DNA of 19,226 bases, taken from IMG/VR virus record IMGVR_UViG_2778261168_000002, positions 1 through 19,226 of that record; one strand, written 5' to 3'. Made by a program: the position numbers and the translations under genes. This DNA is from a virus (taxonomy: Duplodnaviria > Heunggongvirae > Uroviricota > Caudoviricetes). Below, one piece after another: positions 2,819 to 17,028 of the stretch. Every line of letters begins with the position of its first letter. Position 1 is the first letter of the stretch. Under the pieces are notes generated by a model. It did not search any database. It saw nothing but the letters and a program-made list of their open reading frames with translations, and was not told the origin of the DNA.

Positions 2819-5462
2819 TTGCATACTCCTTAGCCCAGCGGGGCAGTGATAACGTCTTAATAGCTGGCCATTCATCGGTATTTAGGCAGTCAGCCAGGGT
2901 CCGCAGATTGCGGTGATATTCCTGCTGGCCTGCCAGTTTTGCTTCTTCGCCCATCATGAAAATCTCAACCGGATAACGTCCGCATTCAACAGTTGTGCTG
3001 GCAACCAGAAAAACGAAAGTTGGCTGCACACCAAACTGTGCTTCATAACCGTCACTGTAGAATGCATCCTGAACGTGATAGCGGTAGTCGTAATAAGACG
3101 TTTTGAATCGTTGAATATCCGCTGTGGTTTTCACGTCCATGATCCAGTGAAATTCAGGAATAATTTTGTCCGGACGGCACCGACACAAAATTCCTGTTTC
3201 CGGATCTTCCCAGTAAATTGATGATTCAGCGTGTCCGGCGCTTTCAACAAGCCATTGCCCCAGCGGCAAAGCCATAACGCTTTGATACATGAGTTCAATT
3301 TTCCGGCCTTCTTCCGCAGTGATAACCGTTTTTCCTGTGCTTGCGCATTCCATCAGAAACGCTTTCTCTTCTTCTTTTCCGGCGTTTGTACGGCGGTTAA
3401 ATTCAGGTGCTACGATAAAGCGGTTACTAAATTCTTCCGGTTCAAGTACCCGGCAGTGGAAAGCGGTTCCTAAATCGAGCGTTTTTGTCTTTGTAGTGTC
3501 CACGGGGGCATTTTTACGCCACAAATACAGTGCCGGAGTATCAGCAATGTCATCGAGCTGAGACTTACTGACACCGGGACCCGCGTGGTAATTCTCATTC
3601 GAAATTCCGTAATAAATACCTGGCTCTATGTCTTCTACGATTACGGGATCTGCGATTTCGCCAGTTTCATCACTGCAATCGCGATGCGGATCGCTGCCAG
3701 CATTCTCATTGTGCGGATGTTCAGCGCCTTCCATTTCCTCCGGATCTTTTTCCTTAGCTTCAACCTGATTCTCTTCACCGAATGTTTCCTGGTATGTTGC
3801 GTCGCCCATCACCGCACCACCGTCAGGGCAGTTATCCCCGCCAGTCTGACCGCAGGCATTGCAGACTATTTCCTGTTCCTGTTGCACTACTGGCTCAGGT
3901 TGTTTCGCATCCGGGCTGATTATTTCCGTTTCTGGCTGGTTCTGATACACAGAATCGCGAGTCTGGATCCCCTTAACCCATTTCGGATCGTTCGGGTCGC
4001 TAATTCCGTCAACAAATTCACCACGTGATGCAGCAAGCAATTTATCGGCATCGACAGGATTTTTTGATGGAATGTTTTTCCTGGCTTCATGGAGTTCTGC
4101 CCGCAGTTCCTGATATTTCGCATCAACAGAATTTACCTGTGACTGAGCATCCATCGGCTGCGTGTTCTGATGATGTTCAGTTGCATTCGGTTCCACTGTT
4201 TCAGCCGTTGCCTGTTCATCTGCCATTGCGCCAGATGGTTGTGGTTTTTCTTCATCGTCCTGTTTTCCTTCTTCTGTTACTCGCTGCGGCATCGGGGCCG
4301 AGGAGCGACCGCAGGCAATATCCACGATTTCCGGATCAGGGTTGGCATGATCGGTTTCAGTCAGTACTTTGTTCAGATATTCAGTGACGTGTGCGGGGAT
4401 GACCTCGATCCCAATTGGTGCTTCTTTCACGGACGCAACCACGATGGCGCGGGAATAATCCAGCCCGCCAGGCATGGTGATGAATTTGTCGCGGAAAACA
4501 GAAAAGGGTGGTTTATTTTCAGCGATAATTTCCTCAATGCGTTTAGCGTGTGCCGGATGAAGGTTATAGATGTCCACGTCCATTGAACGGGCCAGTACGC
4601 CAGTGGCTACATCGCGCGCCAGTGACGTCAGATCGTGGACGAAACCTTCGCCGCGATCGGTGAGGTTCCCGCCGCCAGCATTAGCACCGGAAGCCGTGCG
4701 AGTGATGCGTGAAACACGATTCCCTTTTCGCCATTCTTTTGTCAGAAGACCGCGATCAATGTGTTCGGTATCCAGCCAGGCTGAAATGAAATTCTTAAAT
4801 TCATAGGGCTGATGTTTTTTCGTGATAGAGAACACTGCCTTAATTGCATCAGTCAGGCGGAGCAGGGCGGCATTATCCAGAGTTGTCAGTTCTGCCATGC
4901 TGCGTATGGCCAACAGCAGATTCTGGACATAGCTGTTTTCCTGATCCATCTCAAGAGCAGTAATGTGTTTGCGTTGTTCACGGGTGGCATGATGCAGGTA
5001 TTTTCGATCCCCGGCTGCATACGTAAAAATGTGCAGAAGACGCTGTGTGAACCGCAAAGTGGCTACAGAGACTTCGCAATCCTGGCAATCCTCGTGGGCG
5101 TCTGCCTGCGCGTTTTCTTCCTGGCCTCCCGTCGGTTCTTCGGTTTCCGGTGCATCCTCCTGATGGTGAACGTCGTCTGGCGCTGCTCCCGGTTTTAGTT
5201 CCCAGGTCATGGAGTCTTTGCTGAGTTGATAGCGTTCACTCCAGGTAAAATCGATCTCACCTTCAGGGGGAAGGTCATTAACGACAGGAAAATTCGTGGC
5301 AACAGCTTTAAAATAGTTGCTCAGTTTTTTACCTGACTTAACGATCAGGTAGTCCAGAGTGGCACAGGTTGATTCAAAATCGTCGCTTGCCCACAGGACG
5401 ACGTCAGGTTCACCGGATGATTTTTTCGCTTTCCGTAAAAGGAAGAGTGGTTTTGTGCTCAT
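2811..5462 (-). CDS. recE: RecE exodeoxyribonuclease VIII (883 aa)
   Basis: ORF track 2811..5462 minus; N-terminus [14 protein letters not shown] and C-terminal nuclease region match recalled RecE; GAGGT upstream of ATG at 5462. Confidence 0.9.
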
Positions 5463-9920: not shown

Positions 9921-10667
9921 ATGAAAAATATTGCGACAGGCGGCGTTCTGGAACGCATCCGCCGACTGACCCCGCCACATGTAACCGCGCCATTCAGGAC
10001 GGTGGCGGAGTGGCGCGAGTGGCAACTTGCAGAAGGCCAGAAACGTTGTGAGGAGATCAACCGTCAGAATCGTCAGTTGCGGGTGGAAAAAATCCTGAAT
10101 CGCTCCGGCATCCAGCCTTTGCACCGCAAATGCTCGTTTGCGAATTACCAGGTGCAGAACGACGGCCAGCGATACGCGTTGAGTCAGGCGAAATCTATCG
10201 CTGACGAACTGGTTACCGGATGCACAAATTTCGCGTTTAGCGGAATGCCTGGTACCGGAAAAAACCATCTGGTGGCGGCTATCGGGAATCGCCTGCTGAA
10301 AGATGGCCAGACAGTGATTGTGGTTACCGTGGCGGATGTCATGAGTGCTCTACACGCCAGCTATGACGACGGGCAATCAGGCGAAAAATTTTTGCGGGAA
10401 CTGTGCGAAGTGGATCTGCTGGTTCTTGATGAAATTGGCATTCAGCGCGAGACAAAAAACGAGCAGGTGGTGCTGCACCAGATTGTTGATCGCCGGACAG
10501 CGTCGATGCGCAGCGTGGGGATGCTGACAAACCTGAACTATGAGGCCATGAAAACATTGCTTGGCGAGCGGATTATGGATCGCATGACCATGAACGGCGG
10601 GCGCTGGGTGAATTTTAACTGGGAGAGCTGGCGCCCGAATGTTGGTCAGCCAGGAATTGAAAAGTAA
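9921..10667 (+). CDS. ydaV: DnaC-like helicase loader / IstB-like ATPase (248 aa)
   Basis: Walker [11 protein letters not shown] and Walker B LLVLDEIG; matches recalled YdaV. Confidence 0.85.
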
Positions 10668-10689
10668 TTTTTACCGGGAGGAAATTTTA

Positions 10690-11439
10690 ATGGAGACCGT
10701 TTTTGACGCACTGAAAGCAATGGGAAAAGCCACGTCGGTAGAACTGGCAGCGCGACTTGATATCAGTCGTGAAGAAGTGCTGAACGAGCTGTGGGAACTG
10801 AAAAAGGCTGGCTTCGTTGATAAAAGCGTATACACCTGGCGTGTGGTTGATAACAACGTTCAGCAGGAACATCCAGTGCCGGAAGAACAGCCGGAAGAAA
10901 TCGCCACGGCAACAGTGACGAAAATATCGGAGTGCGATTTAACCGCGACGATTGAACAACGTGGTCCACTAACTGCGGATGAACTGGCTACGTTGTTCGG
11001 TACCACATCACGCAAAGTGGCTTCAACGCTGGCAATGGCAATCAGCAAGGGGCGTCTGATTCGCGTAAATCAGAACGGTAAATTTCGTTACTGCATGCCG
11101 GGCGATAATTTACCAGCAGAACCGAAAGCTGCATTGGTAACGAAAAATGATGGTAAAGCCTTTCCTCAGCCAGCCGGTGTTGCGTTACCAGTACAGGAAG
11201 CGGCAACACAGGAAGATATTAAAACAGAAACTGTGGCGGACATTGTGCAGTCGCTGCCATCGTTTACTGAAACGCAAGCGAATGACCTGGTTTTACCATC
11301 GCTGCATATGGCAAACCGCGAACTGCGTCGGGCGAAAAATCATGTCCAGAAGTGGGAGCGTGTCTGCGCCGCGCTGCGGGAGCTGAACAAGCACCGGGAT
11401 ATTGTCCATAAAGTTATTGCAGCAGGTATGGAGAAATAA
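10690..11439 (+). CDS. Conserved prophage protein, YdaW-like by position (249 aa from [11 protein letters not shown])
   Basis: GGGAGG 9 nt upstream of ATG at 10690; N-terminal winged-helix-like segment; follows ydaV as ydaW does in Rac. Confidence 0.55.
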
Positions 11440-11624
11440 ATACTCCTGATTATATGAGTCATCCTGCTGCAGTTGTGACCAATATGAGCGGTTGTGCAGA
11501 GTTCTTCAGATAGAGGTAATGAAAACTGCGGTGATTTGTATTCGCTGCAGTTAATATAAGCTCGTCGTATTTTTTCATGAAATGTGATCTTAGTCATATT
11601 TATATCACGTCTATTTATCCGATT

Positions 11625-11640
11625 CTGATGAAATCATCAG
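11625..11640. promoter_or_regulatory. Perfect palindrome CTGATGA-aa-TCATCAG about 50 bp upstream of the 689-aa gene; candidate operator
   Basis: Read directly from the sequence; sits in the AT-rich leader. Confidence 0.3.
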
Positions 11641-11692
11641 GTGTTAAGATACTATTTGTGCTGTCACCTCAATGGTTTAAAAAGGAATCTGG

Positions 11693-13762
11693 ATGAAAGG
11701 TAATATTCTCGGGGATATCCGAGCTGAACATGACGAAAAGATGTTGGAAGCTTCATTTTGGCAAACAACTGATTATAAAGCTCTTCTCGAATCCTACGAT
11801 CGCTGCATCATTGTTGGCCGCAGAGGAACAGGAAAAAGTGCTCTGGTGCATATGCTTTCCAAACATTGGCATGCTAAGCCAAAAACCTATGTGATGACTA
11901 TTAGTCCGGTTGAAGAACAAATTATTGGATTAAGGGACGTTATTTCTTTATTTGGTGAAAATTACTTACATATAAAAGCCGGTAGCAAGTTAGCATGGCG
12001 ATATGCTATTTATATGGAGCTGCTTTCTGAGATCGCAAGTCATTACAAGATGAAAAACGATCTTGACTACAAAAGTGTAGAGTCGCATTTATTATCTTGG
12101 GGACCGAAGAGACAAAATATAAGTAGCAAAATAAGAAAAAAATTGAACACTATTCTCGATGATAACAAAAATATAAAACCAGCTACAAGAATAGCCGAAC
12201 TATCCGATAAATTTGAACTTGACTTATTGGAAGAGGTGATAGAAGAAGCAATTTCGAAGTCAAATAATCAATTTGTTATTTTTGCTGATAGACTTGATGA
12301 AGGCTATACACCGGATAATCTTGGTGTTGCAATAGTTGATGGTTTCATTCAGGCTGTGATTGATATAAAACAAAATATGAATGAAAAGGTTATTGCCTTT
12401 GCATTTGTTAGAGATAATATTCATCGAGCTATATCAAAAATGGACCCTGATTTCACTCGAAATATTGAAGGGCAAGTACTGAGATTACATTGGGATGAAT
12501 ATAACTTGTTTAATCTTGTATGCAATAGAATGAGGGTCGCTTTTAACTCAACCATTGAGAATAACACGAGGGTGTGGAATGCTTACACCGCAAATGAATT
12601 ACAGTCTAATACCGGTTTTAAAGAAACATTGAAACTGACTCTATATAGGCCAAGAGATATTTTGGTTTTGTTAAATAATGCATTCTTGCGAGCAAACACA
12701 CATGATCGTAATCGTATTGTCATTGATGACATTCAAGCAACAGCGAATACTATTTCACAAAATAGACTCAATGATTTGTTAAAAGAATATGAGAATGTAT
12801 TTCCTGCATTAGATATATTTACATCGCAATTTGCTAATAGCAAACCTTACTACAGTGTTTCTGAAGCGTCATCTAAGATACAATATGCCCTTGATCTCAA
12901 TGGCGTTATTGACAAGATGAAAATGCAGGATTTACTTCTTTTTGAAGGGCCAATCCAGGTGATTCAACGACTTTACAGTGTTGGATTTATTGGGTTGTAT
13001 AACCAGCAGTCATCTTCATATGTATTTTGCCATGACGGTAAGGAACCTGAAAAAGAATTTACACCAGATTCAAAATTGCTATTGCATCCATGCTACTGGC
13101 TAGCATTAAGTGTTCATGAATCAGAGATGACTCCCGATGCTGCTGATGATATTCATGATGAATATGATATTGAGGTCAGCTCTGTTTCCGAAGAGCAGAG
13201 GAAACAACGAATCGGTTCGTTGCTCCAAGAACTACATAATATACCTGAAGGACCTGAAGGTGCTGTCGATTTTGAAGCATGGGCGCTCAAAACTATAAAG
13301 TTACTATTTGCTACGAATTTAACAAACATTGAGTTGCATCCCAATAAAAATGGGTTGCAGCAAAGAGATATTATAGCGACAAATATAGCTGACACTCCAG
13401 TTTGGAAGAGAATTCTGACAGATTATCAGACACGGCAAGTTGTTTTTGAAGTGAAAAACTATAAAACATTAGGTGCTGCAGAATATAGACAGGTAAATTC
13501 CTATTTGTTTAAAGACTATGGGCGGATAGCTTTTATCATAAATAGAGATCATACAGAGAATTTAGAAAAACATAAAGAACTTACGTGGGTAAAAGAAATT
13601 TATGATAATCATAATAAATTAGTTGTGAAGTTACCCTCTAAGTTCCTTGAAAGACATCTGTCAAAAATGAGAAGCCCGCAAAAACATGACGAAGTTAATA
13701 AACAATTAGGTAAACTGCTCGATCAGTACATAAGGGTCTATTTAAATAATAAATGTAAGTAA
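11693..13762 (+). CDS. 689-aa P-loop NTPase with C-terminal PD-(D/E)xK-like nuclease motif; candidate single-gene anti-phage defence or abortive-infection protein
   Basis: Walker A GRRGTGKS (residues 42-49); Walker B-like FVIFADRLDE; C-terminal QRDIIATN...VVFEVKNYK...EYRQ fits a D...ExK nuclease core; AAGGA Shine-Dalgarno; visibly AT-rich relative to flanking genes; own terminator. Confidence 0.85.
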   Translation: MKGNILGDIRAEHDEKMLEASFWQTTDYKALLESYDRCIIVGRRGTGKSALVHMLSKHWHAKPKTYVMTISPVEEQIIGLRDVISLFGENYLHIKAGSKLAWRYAIYMELLSEIASHYKMKNDLDYKSVESHLLSWGPKRQNISSKIRKKLNTILDDNKNIKPATRIAELSDKFELDLLEEVIEEAISKSNNQFVIFADRLDEGYTPDNLGVAIVDGFIQAVIDIKQNMNEKVIAFAFVRDNIHRAISKMDPDFTRNIEGQVLRLHWDEYNLFNLVCNRMRVAFNSTIENNTRVWNAYTANELQSNTGFKETLKLTLYRPRDILVLLNNAFLRANTHDRNRIVIDDIQATANTISQNRLNDLLKEYENVFPALDIFTSQFANSKPYYSVSEASSKIQYALDLNGVIDKMKMQDLLLFEGPIQVIQRLYSVGFIGLYNQQSSSYVFCHDGKEPEKEFTPDSKLLLHPCYWLALSVHESEMTPDAADDIHDEYDIEVSSVSEEQRKQRIGSLLQELHNIPEGPEGAVDFEAWALKTIKLLFATNLTNIELHPNKNGLQQRDIIATNIADTPVWKRILTDYQTRQVVFEVKNYKTLGAAEYRQVNSYLFKDYGRIAFIINRDHTENLEKHKELTWVKEIYDNHNKLVVKLPSKFLERHLSKMRSPQKHDEVNKQLGKLLDQYIRVYLNNKCK

Positions 13763-13771
13763 TTCAATCTT

Positions 13772-13803
13772 TACCGAAAGATCATGTATCTTTCGGTATT
13801 TTT
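13772..13803 (+). terminator. Rho-independent terminator of the 689-aa gene (TACCGAAAGAT-catgt-ATCTTTCGGTA plus T-run)
   Basis: 11-bp stem and TTTTT read directly, 10 nt after the stop codon. Confidence 0.65.
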
Positions 13804-13888
13804 AAGCGAGAGTAATCAAAATCGTAATGAGAGCTATATAATAATGTGTATAGATTGATTTACGAACGCTTCAACATTTACCGTTATT

Positions 13889-13987
13889 ATGACGGTAAAT
13901 GTTGCAAGGAAAGACCTCTGCGAGGTACGAATCCGAACCGGTCAGACGGAGGTCGCTGTCTTCAGAGCTTACGAATCTGAGGAGTAA
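13889..13987 (+). pseudogene. hok-family toxin remnant retaining the conserved C-terminus (RKDLCEVRIRTGQTEVAVFRAYESEE) but lacking the N-terminal transmembrane segment
   Basis: Hand translation; C-terminal match to the Hok/Gef family (HokD/RelF-like); upstream in-frame sequence is not hydrophobic and runs into a stop at 13856. Confidence 0.55.
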
Positions 13988-14055
13988 GAGACCTGGCGGG
14001 GGAGAAATCCCTCGCCACCTCTCATGTGTCAGGCATCCTCAAAGCACCCGCACTT

Positions 14056-14081
14056 AACCCGCTTCGGCGGGTTTTGTTTTT
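14056..14081 (+). terminator. Rho-independent terminator (CCCGC-ttcg-GCGGG plus TTTTGTTTTT) at the 3' end of the hok-like transcript
   Basis: Hairpin and T-run read directly. Confidence 0.6.
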
Positions 14082-14160
14082 CATGAATAAGGGATTAATA
14101 ATTTTAACTGAAGTTATATTACCTTGTGGCCCGATAAGTTAATTAATTATCAATGCGCCT

Positions 14161-14250
14161 GTATTGTTTGTATTGTTTGCATTGTTTGTATTGTTTGTAT
14201 TATTTGTATTGTTTGTATTGTTTTTATTATTTGCGTTGTTTGTGGTTTTA
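14161..14250. repeat. Degenerate tandem array of about 10 copies of the 9-bp unit GTATTGTTT
   Basis: Units at 14161, 14170, 14179, 14188, 14197, 14206, 14215 and following, with single-base variants (GCATTGTTT, GTATTATTT, GCGTTGTTT). Confidence 0.85.
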
Positions 14251-14381
14251 TCTTTTTGGGTTTATTTTTTGCGTTGCTTAGAAATAAAGATTAATTAGAA
14301 TCCTCCTGTTTTGAGTAGCGCGCAGGGACAAGAGGGATGGACCCTGAGAAGGGGGTGCTATTTATCCGGAAGGATTCTTTG

Positions 14382-14555
14382 ATGAATATCGAAAAAATTC
14401 GTGAAACTTTTAGTGAAAATGGCCTCTATGCTGTGCGCGTTGAGAATGGAGAAGTTATCTACACAACGTTAATTCCTGATGATCATGTGATTTTATCTAT
14501 CGAGGCATTCATTGAATACCTGGAAAGGCTTGGTTTCAAGGTGGCTAGGGAATGA
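14382..14555 (+). CDS. Small hypothetical phage protein (57 aa from MNIEKIRETF)
   Basis: GGAAGGA about 7 nt upstream of ATG at 14382; the ORF-track start at 14337 has no usable spacing to a Shine-Dalgarno. Confidence 0.4.
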   Translation: MNIEKIRETFSENGLYAVRVENGEVIYTTLIPDDHVILSIEAFIEYLERLGFKVARE

Positions 14556-14614
14556 GTTATAATTCGTAAGCCAGCTTGAACAACTGGCAACCTACAGCGC
14601 CATTGGAGATAGCA

Positions 14615-16150: not shown

Positions 16151-17028
16151 ACGTCAGGAAAGCAGGGGAGAATGCTGCTAGTTGGGCAACTGGTCTTTCT
16201 GCTCCAAATTATAACAGAGACCAGTTATAGTTTCGGTGCTGTGTTTTTTTTACAATATTGTGATAACACATTGCTGGCGGGAGTTTTGATATTTCTTGGC
16301 AGGGGCTGATGATGCGTTATCCTGATGTCGTCAACTCATATAAAATGAGATGAGAGATCATTGCAGGGTGGTTTGTAATTCGCTGTTTAGCGGGACAATA
16401 TGTTGTCTGATACAAGACACCCGACGCCTCAGATTACTATAATAAAGACGAAGCATCCTTTGTATTGACCAACCGCCTGTTTAGGCGGTTCTTTTTGGGC
16501 TGGTTTATTGTATGCCAAATGATTATTAAAAAGGTTGTGTTAATAACAAAATCCGAAATAATATGCCTGCATATTTTTATCTTGCTTATATTCTGCATAT
16601 TGTGCATAGCAGGCTCATCCCTGCAATCAAAACTGTATGATGAGTATTTTTTGTTTTCCTTTTTTCCAGTCATCTGATGATGACCTGCTTCTTTTTAATC
16701 CGGATCGACATCAGTTTTTTAAGATAATTCCTGCGAGTTATATGCATAAATGCCACAAACTCCGCATTTTATGTGGTTGGGAGTTGCCGGGCGCGCAGTG
16801 AGTTTGCTAAGAAAACTCCTGCATGGTGAATCCCCCTGTGCGGTGGGGTGATACCATTAACCTTTTCTGTCGCCGACAGGTATCACGAACATTTTGTTCA
16901 CCGGGAGGCACCCGGCACCATGCACTTCAATAGATTCTCTCCACATTATGGATATTCTTTCAGAATATCCCACGCAGACTTTGTGTAAATGTTAACAAAT
17001 GTGCGTTTTATTTGATCTGATTCGCTGT

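Follow-up and report, generated by a model that had tools for sequence, protein, structure and literature searches.

The window analyzed here, which is the whole stretch of 19,226 nt from a viral record of the Caudoviricetes (IMGVR_UViG_2778261168_000002), contains a short reading frame resembling the end of a Hok toxin at the right edge of a low-GC segment. A preliminary description made from the letters alone took this frame and the sequence behind it, 13856-14081, as a hok-family gene that had lost its 5' half when the cargo on its left was acquired. The locus thus raises the questions of whether the remnant is genuinely hok, where the hok sequence begins and what kind of event left it there. 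Our best explanation, to which as a whole we assign a probability of roughly 0.88, is that 13877-14081 is what remains of a type I toxin-antitoxin locus of lambdoid prophages, hokD/sok, namely its 3' 47%, now inert. The remnant has two parts:

13877 to 13987, + strand: 5'-truncated hokD pseudogene, codons 16-51 and a TAA stop (blastn, tblastn and the PGAP call on the FDAARGOS_497 equivalent)
13988 to 14081, + strand: orphan hok mRNA 3' UTR with a stable stem, an fbi element and an intrinsic terminator

The coding part is recognizable at both the protein and the DNA level. The 32-codon ORF at 13889-13987 translates to MTVNVARKDLCEVRIRTGQTEVAVFRAYESEE, and the stub contains the conserved C-terminal periplasmic segment of the Hok/Gef toxins (RKxLCEx...AxxAYE). 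Pfam HOK_GEF (PF01848) matches it with a score of 49.5 bits (cutoff 22), covering profile positions 16-42 of 42, the NCBIfam Hok family toxin model matches over positions 26-51 of 52, and in a tblastn search with full-length HokD as the query, residues 17-51 aligned to 13880-13984 with 83% identity (E 1.5e-15), all of which bears out the original identification of 13889-13987 as a Hok-type C-terminal tail. A megablast search of 5,426 complete E. coli genomes with this region as the query matched annotated hokD genes in most of them; over ~175 nt the stub DNA has 95-97% identity to hokD as annotated in thousands of E. coli genomes, and the segment 13907-14081 is ~96% identical to hokD of the STEC type. 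Identity at this level places the hok similarity far beyond chance and, with the Pfam match, rules out a spurious resemblance.

The other way in which the truncated-hok reading could have failed is that an intact N-terminus is present and was misread through a frameshift. This is ruled out by the tblastn search, in which HokD residues 1-16 found only chance-level matches (E >= 0.7) in any frame of the whole 19-kb window, and we give these two alternatives together practically no weight. Upstream of the stub there is a TGA in the hok frame at 13856-13858; extended leftward, this frame reads ...CID, a stop codon and then FTNASTFTVIMTVNVARKD.... The preliminary description held that the N-terminal transmembrane helix was missing altogether, which is correct for residues 1-16, but ~9 residues of the C-terminal half of the helix are kept in degenerate form (TVIMTVNVA vs TVIVTALVT in hokD). 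The stub therefore lacks the complete ORF of ~50 codons with a start codon and an N-terminal transmembrane helix, and is a pseudogene rather than a functional member of the Hok/Gef type I toxins.

The boundaries of the remnant and of the neighboring cargo were defined by comparison with five prophages that carry an intact hokD/sok at the same position: those of STEC316 (L001), STEC383 (L003), JNU (L004), cq9 (L005) and HKUOPY1 (L006). The features that meet at these boundaries are:

10639 to 11439, + strand: DUF1627 gene (Pfam DUF1627, 324 bits), the left anchor of a variable slot
11407 to 13876, + strand: cargo module, 2,470 bp with 35.2% GC, replacing the accessory genes and the hok/sok 5' half of relatives
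13877 to 13906, + strand: divergent first 30 nt of the stub (codons 16-25, C-terminal half of the transmembrane helix), which travel with the cargo
13872 to 13904, no strand assigned: 33-nt near-perfect palindrome (inverted repeat, 94% complementary) straddling the cargo/hok junction

In blastn alignments, homology to the window starts at 13877 in all five intact loci as well as in the best phage hok matches. This position lies 45 nt into the 156-nt hok CDS (hok ATG at -45) and codons 1-15 are gone; the sequence to its left is 96-99% shared with the cargo of other genomes and not with hok. Homology on the left side ends at 11406/11407, inside the DUF1627 gene (blastn vs STEC316, STEC383, JNU and cq9), and the GC content of the cargo (35.2%) departs from that of the left (50.8%) and right (47.8%) flanks. 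The remnant had thus been placed correctly, at the right junction of a cargo that is low in GC and is now delimited by breakpoints at 11406/11407 and 13876/13877. The junction itself had been put near 13890-13905, and alignment to the intact loci moved it 13-28 nt to the left; the divergence of 13877-13906 had hidden the homology. At the left boundary, the last 11 codons of the DUF1627 gene (11407-11439) derive from the cargo module, and each comparator prophage has its own DUF1627 C-terminal tail from the same point, making this a recurrent mosaic boundary within a CDS.

The position at which the cargo resides is a hypervariable slot in Rac-like prophages, with the complete hok/sok locus as its conserved right border. 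In JNU and cq9 the backbone order is ydaU/ydaV, DUF1627, variable genes, intact hokD, DUF1367, DUF1364 and DUF1133, and the slot contents of the comparators include ead/Ea22, DUF4014, methyltransferase, KilA-N and DUF551 genes followed by the complete hok/sok. In the window the right border of the slot has been pushed 230-260 bp into the hok/sok locus. Two small RNA matches were seen elsewhere in the window: the RalA antitoxin sRNA (218 bits, full-length model, 1557-1735), which marks the element, an E. coli prophage, as Rac-like, and STnc100 (86.6 bits, 16791-16977), situated between a Q-like gene and the lysis genes.

Complete hok/sok loci are ~430-460 bp long, and in the intact loci the conserved module extends 226-258 nt to the left of the position equivalent to the breakpoint, meaning that the window has lost a little over half of it. 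The missing portion comprises the promoter, the leader with its tac and ucb elements, mok, both the target and the gene of Sok, and the first 15 codons of hok. The search for Sok and Mok remnants that the preliminary description had proposed, run here with Rfam, blastn and tblastn, yielded nothing beyond chance matches and one expected complementarity. The Rfam sok model (RF01794), which scored 120 bits on the intact STEC316 locus as a positive control, had no match in the whole window at the gathering threshold and none in 13500-14400 at E <= 10. Similarly, blastn-short searches with four intact 5' regions returned chance matches of 10-16 nt only, apart from the complementarity to the fbi element. 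The locus in the window therefore has no 5' leader (tac/ucb), mok frame or Sok gene and retains the 3' fbi element and terminator.

The 3' UTR is as the preliminary description had it, a folded region of the hok type followed by a terminator. Positions 13988-14082 fold at -41.8 kcal/mol (z -4.6) with the two-hairpin 3' end typical of hok mRNAs, and the terminator scan found an intrinsic terminator at 14056-14073 which, with its T run, ends a UTR that is ~96% identical to that of STEC-type hokD. The fbi element, 14037-14052, is complementary at 15 of 16 positions to the 5' end (tac region) of intact hok mRNAs and is now without its tac partner in the window. The Rfam isrK model gave a sub-threshold match to 13996-14077 (27.4 bits, E 9.5e-4; gathering score 50) and a likewise sub-threshold match of 27.1 bits to 4121-4202 of the intact STEC316 locus. 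As the truncated and intact hokD loci score equally, the match reflects the generic shape of a hok 3' UTR, and the isrK resemblance may be just a likeness in having two hairpins and a terminator. The paper describing IsrK, an sRNA of Salmonella Gifsy-1, draws no link to hok (PMC4825925).

Beyond the hok terminator, the window departs from the other cargo carriers. The ~480 bp that follow (14075-14556) are unrelated to the sequence of the other 41 carriers; 14075-14344 matches STEC-type prophages and the sequence from 14311 onward matches prophages of the cq9/JNU type, which is a further mosaic joint. Just past the terminator, within an AT-rich spacer (14082-14336), is a 9-nt tandem repeat, TGTATTGTT, present in 9.3 copies (85% matches) at 14160-14243. 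The repeat stretch is 95% shared with the STEC-type intact hokD loci (STEC316 and STEC383), the matched lengths varying by genome. An ORF with a TTG start at 14124-14294, which is putative only, would render the repeat as (CIV)n, and a 72-aa ORF at 14337-14555 had no family match.

The first 30 nt of the stub differ from the remainder of the hok sequence in their degree of conservation. Against hokD, 10 of these 30 positions are mismatched, vs 7 of the 175 positions that follow (Fisher p 1e-5), and the divergence of the patch from every intact allele is 27-33%. We considered whether the junction might lie at 13906/13907, with the patch resembling hok by chance, and rejected this based on its 20-22 ungapped matches of 30 in exact register (P ~1e-6 to 4e-8; ~2e-6 for the 20 of 30 matches to hokD). 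Between the window and the other truncated lineage, 27 of the 30 patch positions agree. An exact 19-mer scan of 185,579 GTDB species genomes found no intact hok allele with the divergent 30 nt of the stub; the one relevant match was Escherichia ruysiae, which has the identical truncated junction, and the remaining five hits, in sequence not homologous to the window, are due to chance. The patch is far more diverged than neutral decay would have left it after a recent event; its source could be a divergent donor allele or templated mutation.

The junction palindrome folds at -14.8 kcal/mol (z -6.1) and is composed of both sequences: the outermost 5 nt of the left arm are cargo and the remainder is hok stub. 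It is self-complementary at 30 of 33 positions in the window vs 24 of 33 in all six other junction carriers examined. The difference lies at 13897-13900, where the window has AAAT and all six other carriers have GCAG: the substitutions at 13897, 13898 and 13900 pair with 13879, 13878 and 13876, respectively, and raise the stability of the fold from -7.7 to -14.8 kcal/mol. Clustered substitutions that each improve an inverted repeat are the signature of quasipalindrome template switching, and the pattern is compatible with such a mutational mechanism. The alignment of the ancestral patch with intact hokD, read by eye, has eight differences, of which four likewise better the palindrome. As native hok has a short inverted repeat here, the left arm of the palindrome could itself be a templated copy, in which case the exact breakpoint could be uncertain by ~11 nt.

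The content of the cargo is simple:

11693 to 13762, + strand: gene for a Sll1717-family P-loop ATPase of 689 aa (NCBIfam ATPase_Sll1717, 255 bits against a cutoff of 75, residues 6-472)
13772 to 13809, + strand: the cargo's own intrinsic terminator, with a perfect 11-bp stem, a 5-nt loop and TTTTT (terminator scan, inverted repeat)

The ATPase gene is the sole gene of the module, and PGAP gives its FDAARGOS_497 equivalent the same name. Residues 528-623 of the ATPase are matched by the PADLOC candidate PDC-M36A at 3e-11, with a second candidate, PDC-M28C, at 4e-6; the NCBIfam model DS41_1_antiphage scored 36 bits vs a cutoff of 370, and the C-terminal region has a weak PD-(D/E)XK hint (PDDEXK_3 E 0.049, FEVK motif). 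A search for a relative of solved structure found none. We regard the ATPase gene as the cargo's payload and as a candidate for a defence gene borne by the prophage. The terminator behind it, which the terminator scan placed at 13772-13798, folds at -13.6 kcal/mol (z -3.8), and a crude consensus scan of 11407-11692, an AT-rich region, called 0 sigma-70-like sites on the + strand. The module has the marks of a moron or accessory cargo in that it is a discrete segment with deviant GC and its own terminator, and has collinear relatives without it.

Unrelated IMG/VR contigs, 4-110 kb long, carry relatives of the ATPase gene in two groups, with nucleotide identities of ~77% and ~66% (loci L016-L025 and L027). 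In the ~77% group, DNA homology extends from the ATG to the stop codon or just past it (to 13766), while in the ~66% group it again starts at the ATG and stops inside the final 28-40 nt of the CDS. The relatives at 66-77% on these IMG/VR contigs have only the CDS in common and no hok nearby. From these homology limits, the ATPase gene behaves as a gene-sized mobile unit.

We considered whether the hok remnant might have been kept because it serves a function of its own. As a toxin gene it is most likely inert: the absence of a start region, a Shine-Dalgarno sequence and the N-terminal half of the helix, along with the upstream in-frame stop, should leave it unable to make a toxin, and it is also without an antitoxin. 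Other roles that can be envisaged are a terminator insulating the cassette from the late-regulatory genes, a small RNA derived from the 3' UTR, a soluble peptide of 32 aa read from the chance ATG at 13889, or a palindrome (13872-13904) that binds protein. The 3' UTR and terminator are structurally intact, which would suit the first two, but the cassette's own terminator is already in place 80 nt upstream, and the isrK match that might point to a small RNA is far below the gathering score and equally present on intact hokD. For expression of any kind, the scan called no promoter-like site between 13799 and 13889, and for the peptide in particular there is no Shine-Dalgarno sequence before the ATG, which is buried in a hairpin. 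The stronger palindrome in the window than in the other carriers is in keeping with a binding site; however, the differences of the stub CDS from STEC hokD (1 synonymous and 2 non-synonymous) give no sign of constraint. Retention for a function is thus very unlikely, and we continue with the remnant as an inert relic.

The distribution of the junction bears directly on when the truncation took place. The cargo is present in 41 of the 5,426 complete E. coli genomes, at 99% identity, once in each and always after DUF1627, and all 41 have the cargo/hok junction. Outside this genome set, E. ruysiae and four IMG/VR contigs carry the junction as well, and the cargo was absent from 50,697 phage records. 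In the carriers, PGAP calls a "P-loop ATPase, Sll1717 family" followed by a "Hok/Gef family protein; incomplete; missing N-terminus". Hence the remnant is already annotated in ~40 public E. coli genomes and is mechanistically ordinary; what our analysis refines are the exact breakpoints, the common ancestry of the junction, the probable spread of the cassette by recombination and the junction palindrome. That the junction is the same base for base in all carriers indicates that it arose once. The remnant had initially been thought to date the insertion relative to the phage backbone, but a junction that travels with its cargo across diverged backbones only shows that hok preceded the cargo in some ancestor. 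The proposal that the acquisition removed a toxin stands in so far as the ORF is cut at codon 16, although the truncation was not made in this prophage.

Further evidence on the history of the locus comes from comparison with the carrier FDAARGOS_497 (L002, EGY17_RS20710). Between the two, the ATPase gene/cargo is 99.4% identical, vs 92.6% for the left backbone, 92.9% for the rest of the hok CDS and only 78.6% for the hok 3' UTR. The FDAARGOS_497 stub is itself 96.1% identical to the intact HKUOPY1 allele from the equivalent of 13877 on, and all eight mismatches appear to be confined to the 30-nt patch. A cargo that is 99.4% identical between flanks of 79-93%, adjoining different hok 3' alleles, points to spread by homologous recombination in the flanks.

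Based on these observations, we propose that an ancestral illegitimate recombination would have replaced the contents of the slot together with the left 230-260 bp of the hok locus, the incoming piece being a 2.47-kb low-GC cassette with the Sll1717-family P-loop ATPase gene and its own terminator. The preliminary view that cargo acquisition deleted the 5' half of hok is upheld in that this half was lost at the cargo edge, but the change is a replacement of the slot and not a simple insertion. The cassette and the first 30 nt of the stub would later have moved among diverged prophage backbones by homologous recombination, with the DUF1627 gene as the left arm and the invariant hok core, AGGAAAGACCTCTGCGAGGTACGAATCCGAACCG, from 13907 as the right arm. 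The right-hand crossover would fall within this core, at 13907-13941. Transfer of the cassette between backbones would explain why the window has the 3' part of a STEC-type hokD and other carriers have another allele.

A different order of events would have two steps, in which the ATPase cassette was placed upstream of an intact hok/sok and a later deletion removed sok, mok and the 5' end of hok. Selection for such a deletion is conceivable, for example if loss or disturbance of Sok made the toxin lethal and thereby favored deletions inactivating it. The Qin prophage, in which relBE sits directly against hok with the CDS intact, indicates that intermediates of this kind are viable. However, no arrangement of the cargo beside an intact hok/sok was found in the 41 E. 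coli genomes, the GTDB species representatives, the phage collection or the IMG/VR matches, and all carriers have one and the same base-identical junction. We consider the two-step order unlikely, yet the least improbable of the alternatives, and favor replacement in a single event. As these collections held no pre-deletion intermediate, and no donor context was found for the non-coding ends of the cassette, we infer both the single event and the direction of transfer.

Several broader expectations could be built on this explanation. The patch and hok core might act as a portable right homology arm and the 3' end of DUF1627 as the left arm, by which the ATPase cassette hops between diverged lambdoid prophages; hok loci might be general docking borders for cargo (relBE in Qin, the ATPase here); and the junction palindrome might be actively evolving and prone to template switching. 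We regard this extended model as a long shot. In a more speculative variant, the orphan, IsrK-like hok 3' UTR may be transcribed into an RNA that regulates the Q-region genes lying downstream.

While a specialist would find nothing surprising here, the remnant has value for annotation, as it fixes the cargo boundaries to the base (11407-13876) and shows that the prophage lost a toxin-antitoxin pair. It is a clean, small example of a conserved hok locus as the border of a lambdoid accessory hotspot, and of a 99.4%-identical cassette that appears to have crossed backbones just 79-93% identical through recombination in its flanks. For experimental work, the adjoining Sll1717-family ATPase is a more promising object than the stub.

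With regard to known systems, the intact hokD/sok loci of cq9, JNU, STEC316, STEC383 and HKUOPY1 and the hokW-sokW locus of the Stx phage Sp5 occupy the same prophage position as the remnant, between the DUF1627-bounded accessory slot and the DUF1367/DUF968 to Q region. The intact loci keep the 5' leader, mok, sok and the 51-codon ORF, whereas the window is without all four. The hokW-sokW locus of Sp5 is active and aids phage release (PMC8621323), and by analogy the loss of hok/sok here plausibly removes such a function. The FDAARGOS_497 prophage, which is also Rac-like, has the same cargo (99.0-99.4%), the same junction to the base, the 30-nt patch and the gene order of the window (DUF1627, ATPase, hok stub, DUF1367, DUF1364, DUF1133); it differs in having another hok allele right of 13907, and the window alone has the three additional substitutions that perfect the palindrome.

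A parallel to the truncation itself is hokD (relF) of the K-12 Qin prophage (L028, NC_000913.3 1645119-1645700), where the cargo, the relBE toxin-antitoxin pair, adjoins a hok locus that has lost the regulatory region on its 5' side. The prophage position, ahead of the Q-region genes, is the same. Pedersen and Gerdes reportedly noted in 1999 that this hokD is without sok and mok. In our alignments, the Qin locus is homologous to a full locus only from 14 nt ahead of the hokD ATG onward, and the relE stop codon precedes this ATG by 72 nt. The Qin break is thus 59 nt further left and leaves the 51-codon toxin ORF intact, whereas the break in the window, at codon 16, destroys the toxin. Judged from these alignments, Qin relBE is a second case in which cargo has taken the place of the regulatory 5' half of a hok locus in a prophage. 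The landing of cargo on the 5' side of hok is therefore recurrent, with Qin a milder version that spares the ORF. Lastly, like phage morons and defence cassettes, the cargo is a gene-sized, low-GC unit with its own terminator that is exchangeable between conserved backbone genes, and the relatives of its gene at 66-77% identity share the CDS only, in unrelated viral contigs; a simple promoter scan calls no promoter for it, and its defence role is that of a candidate.
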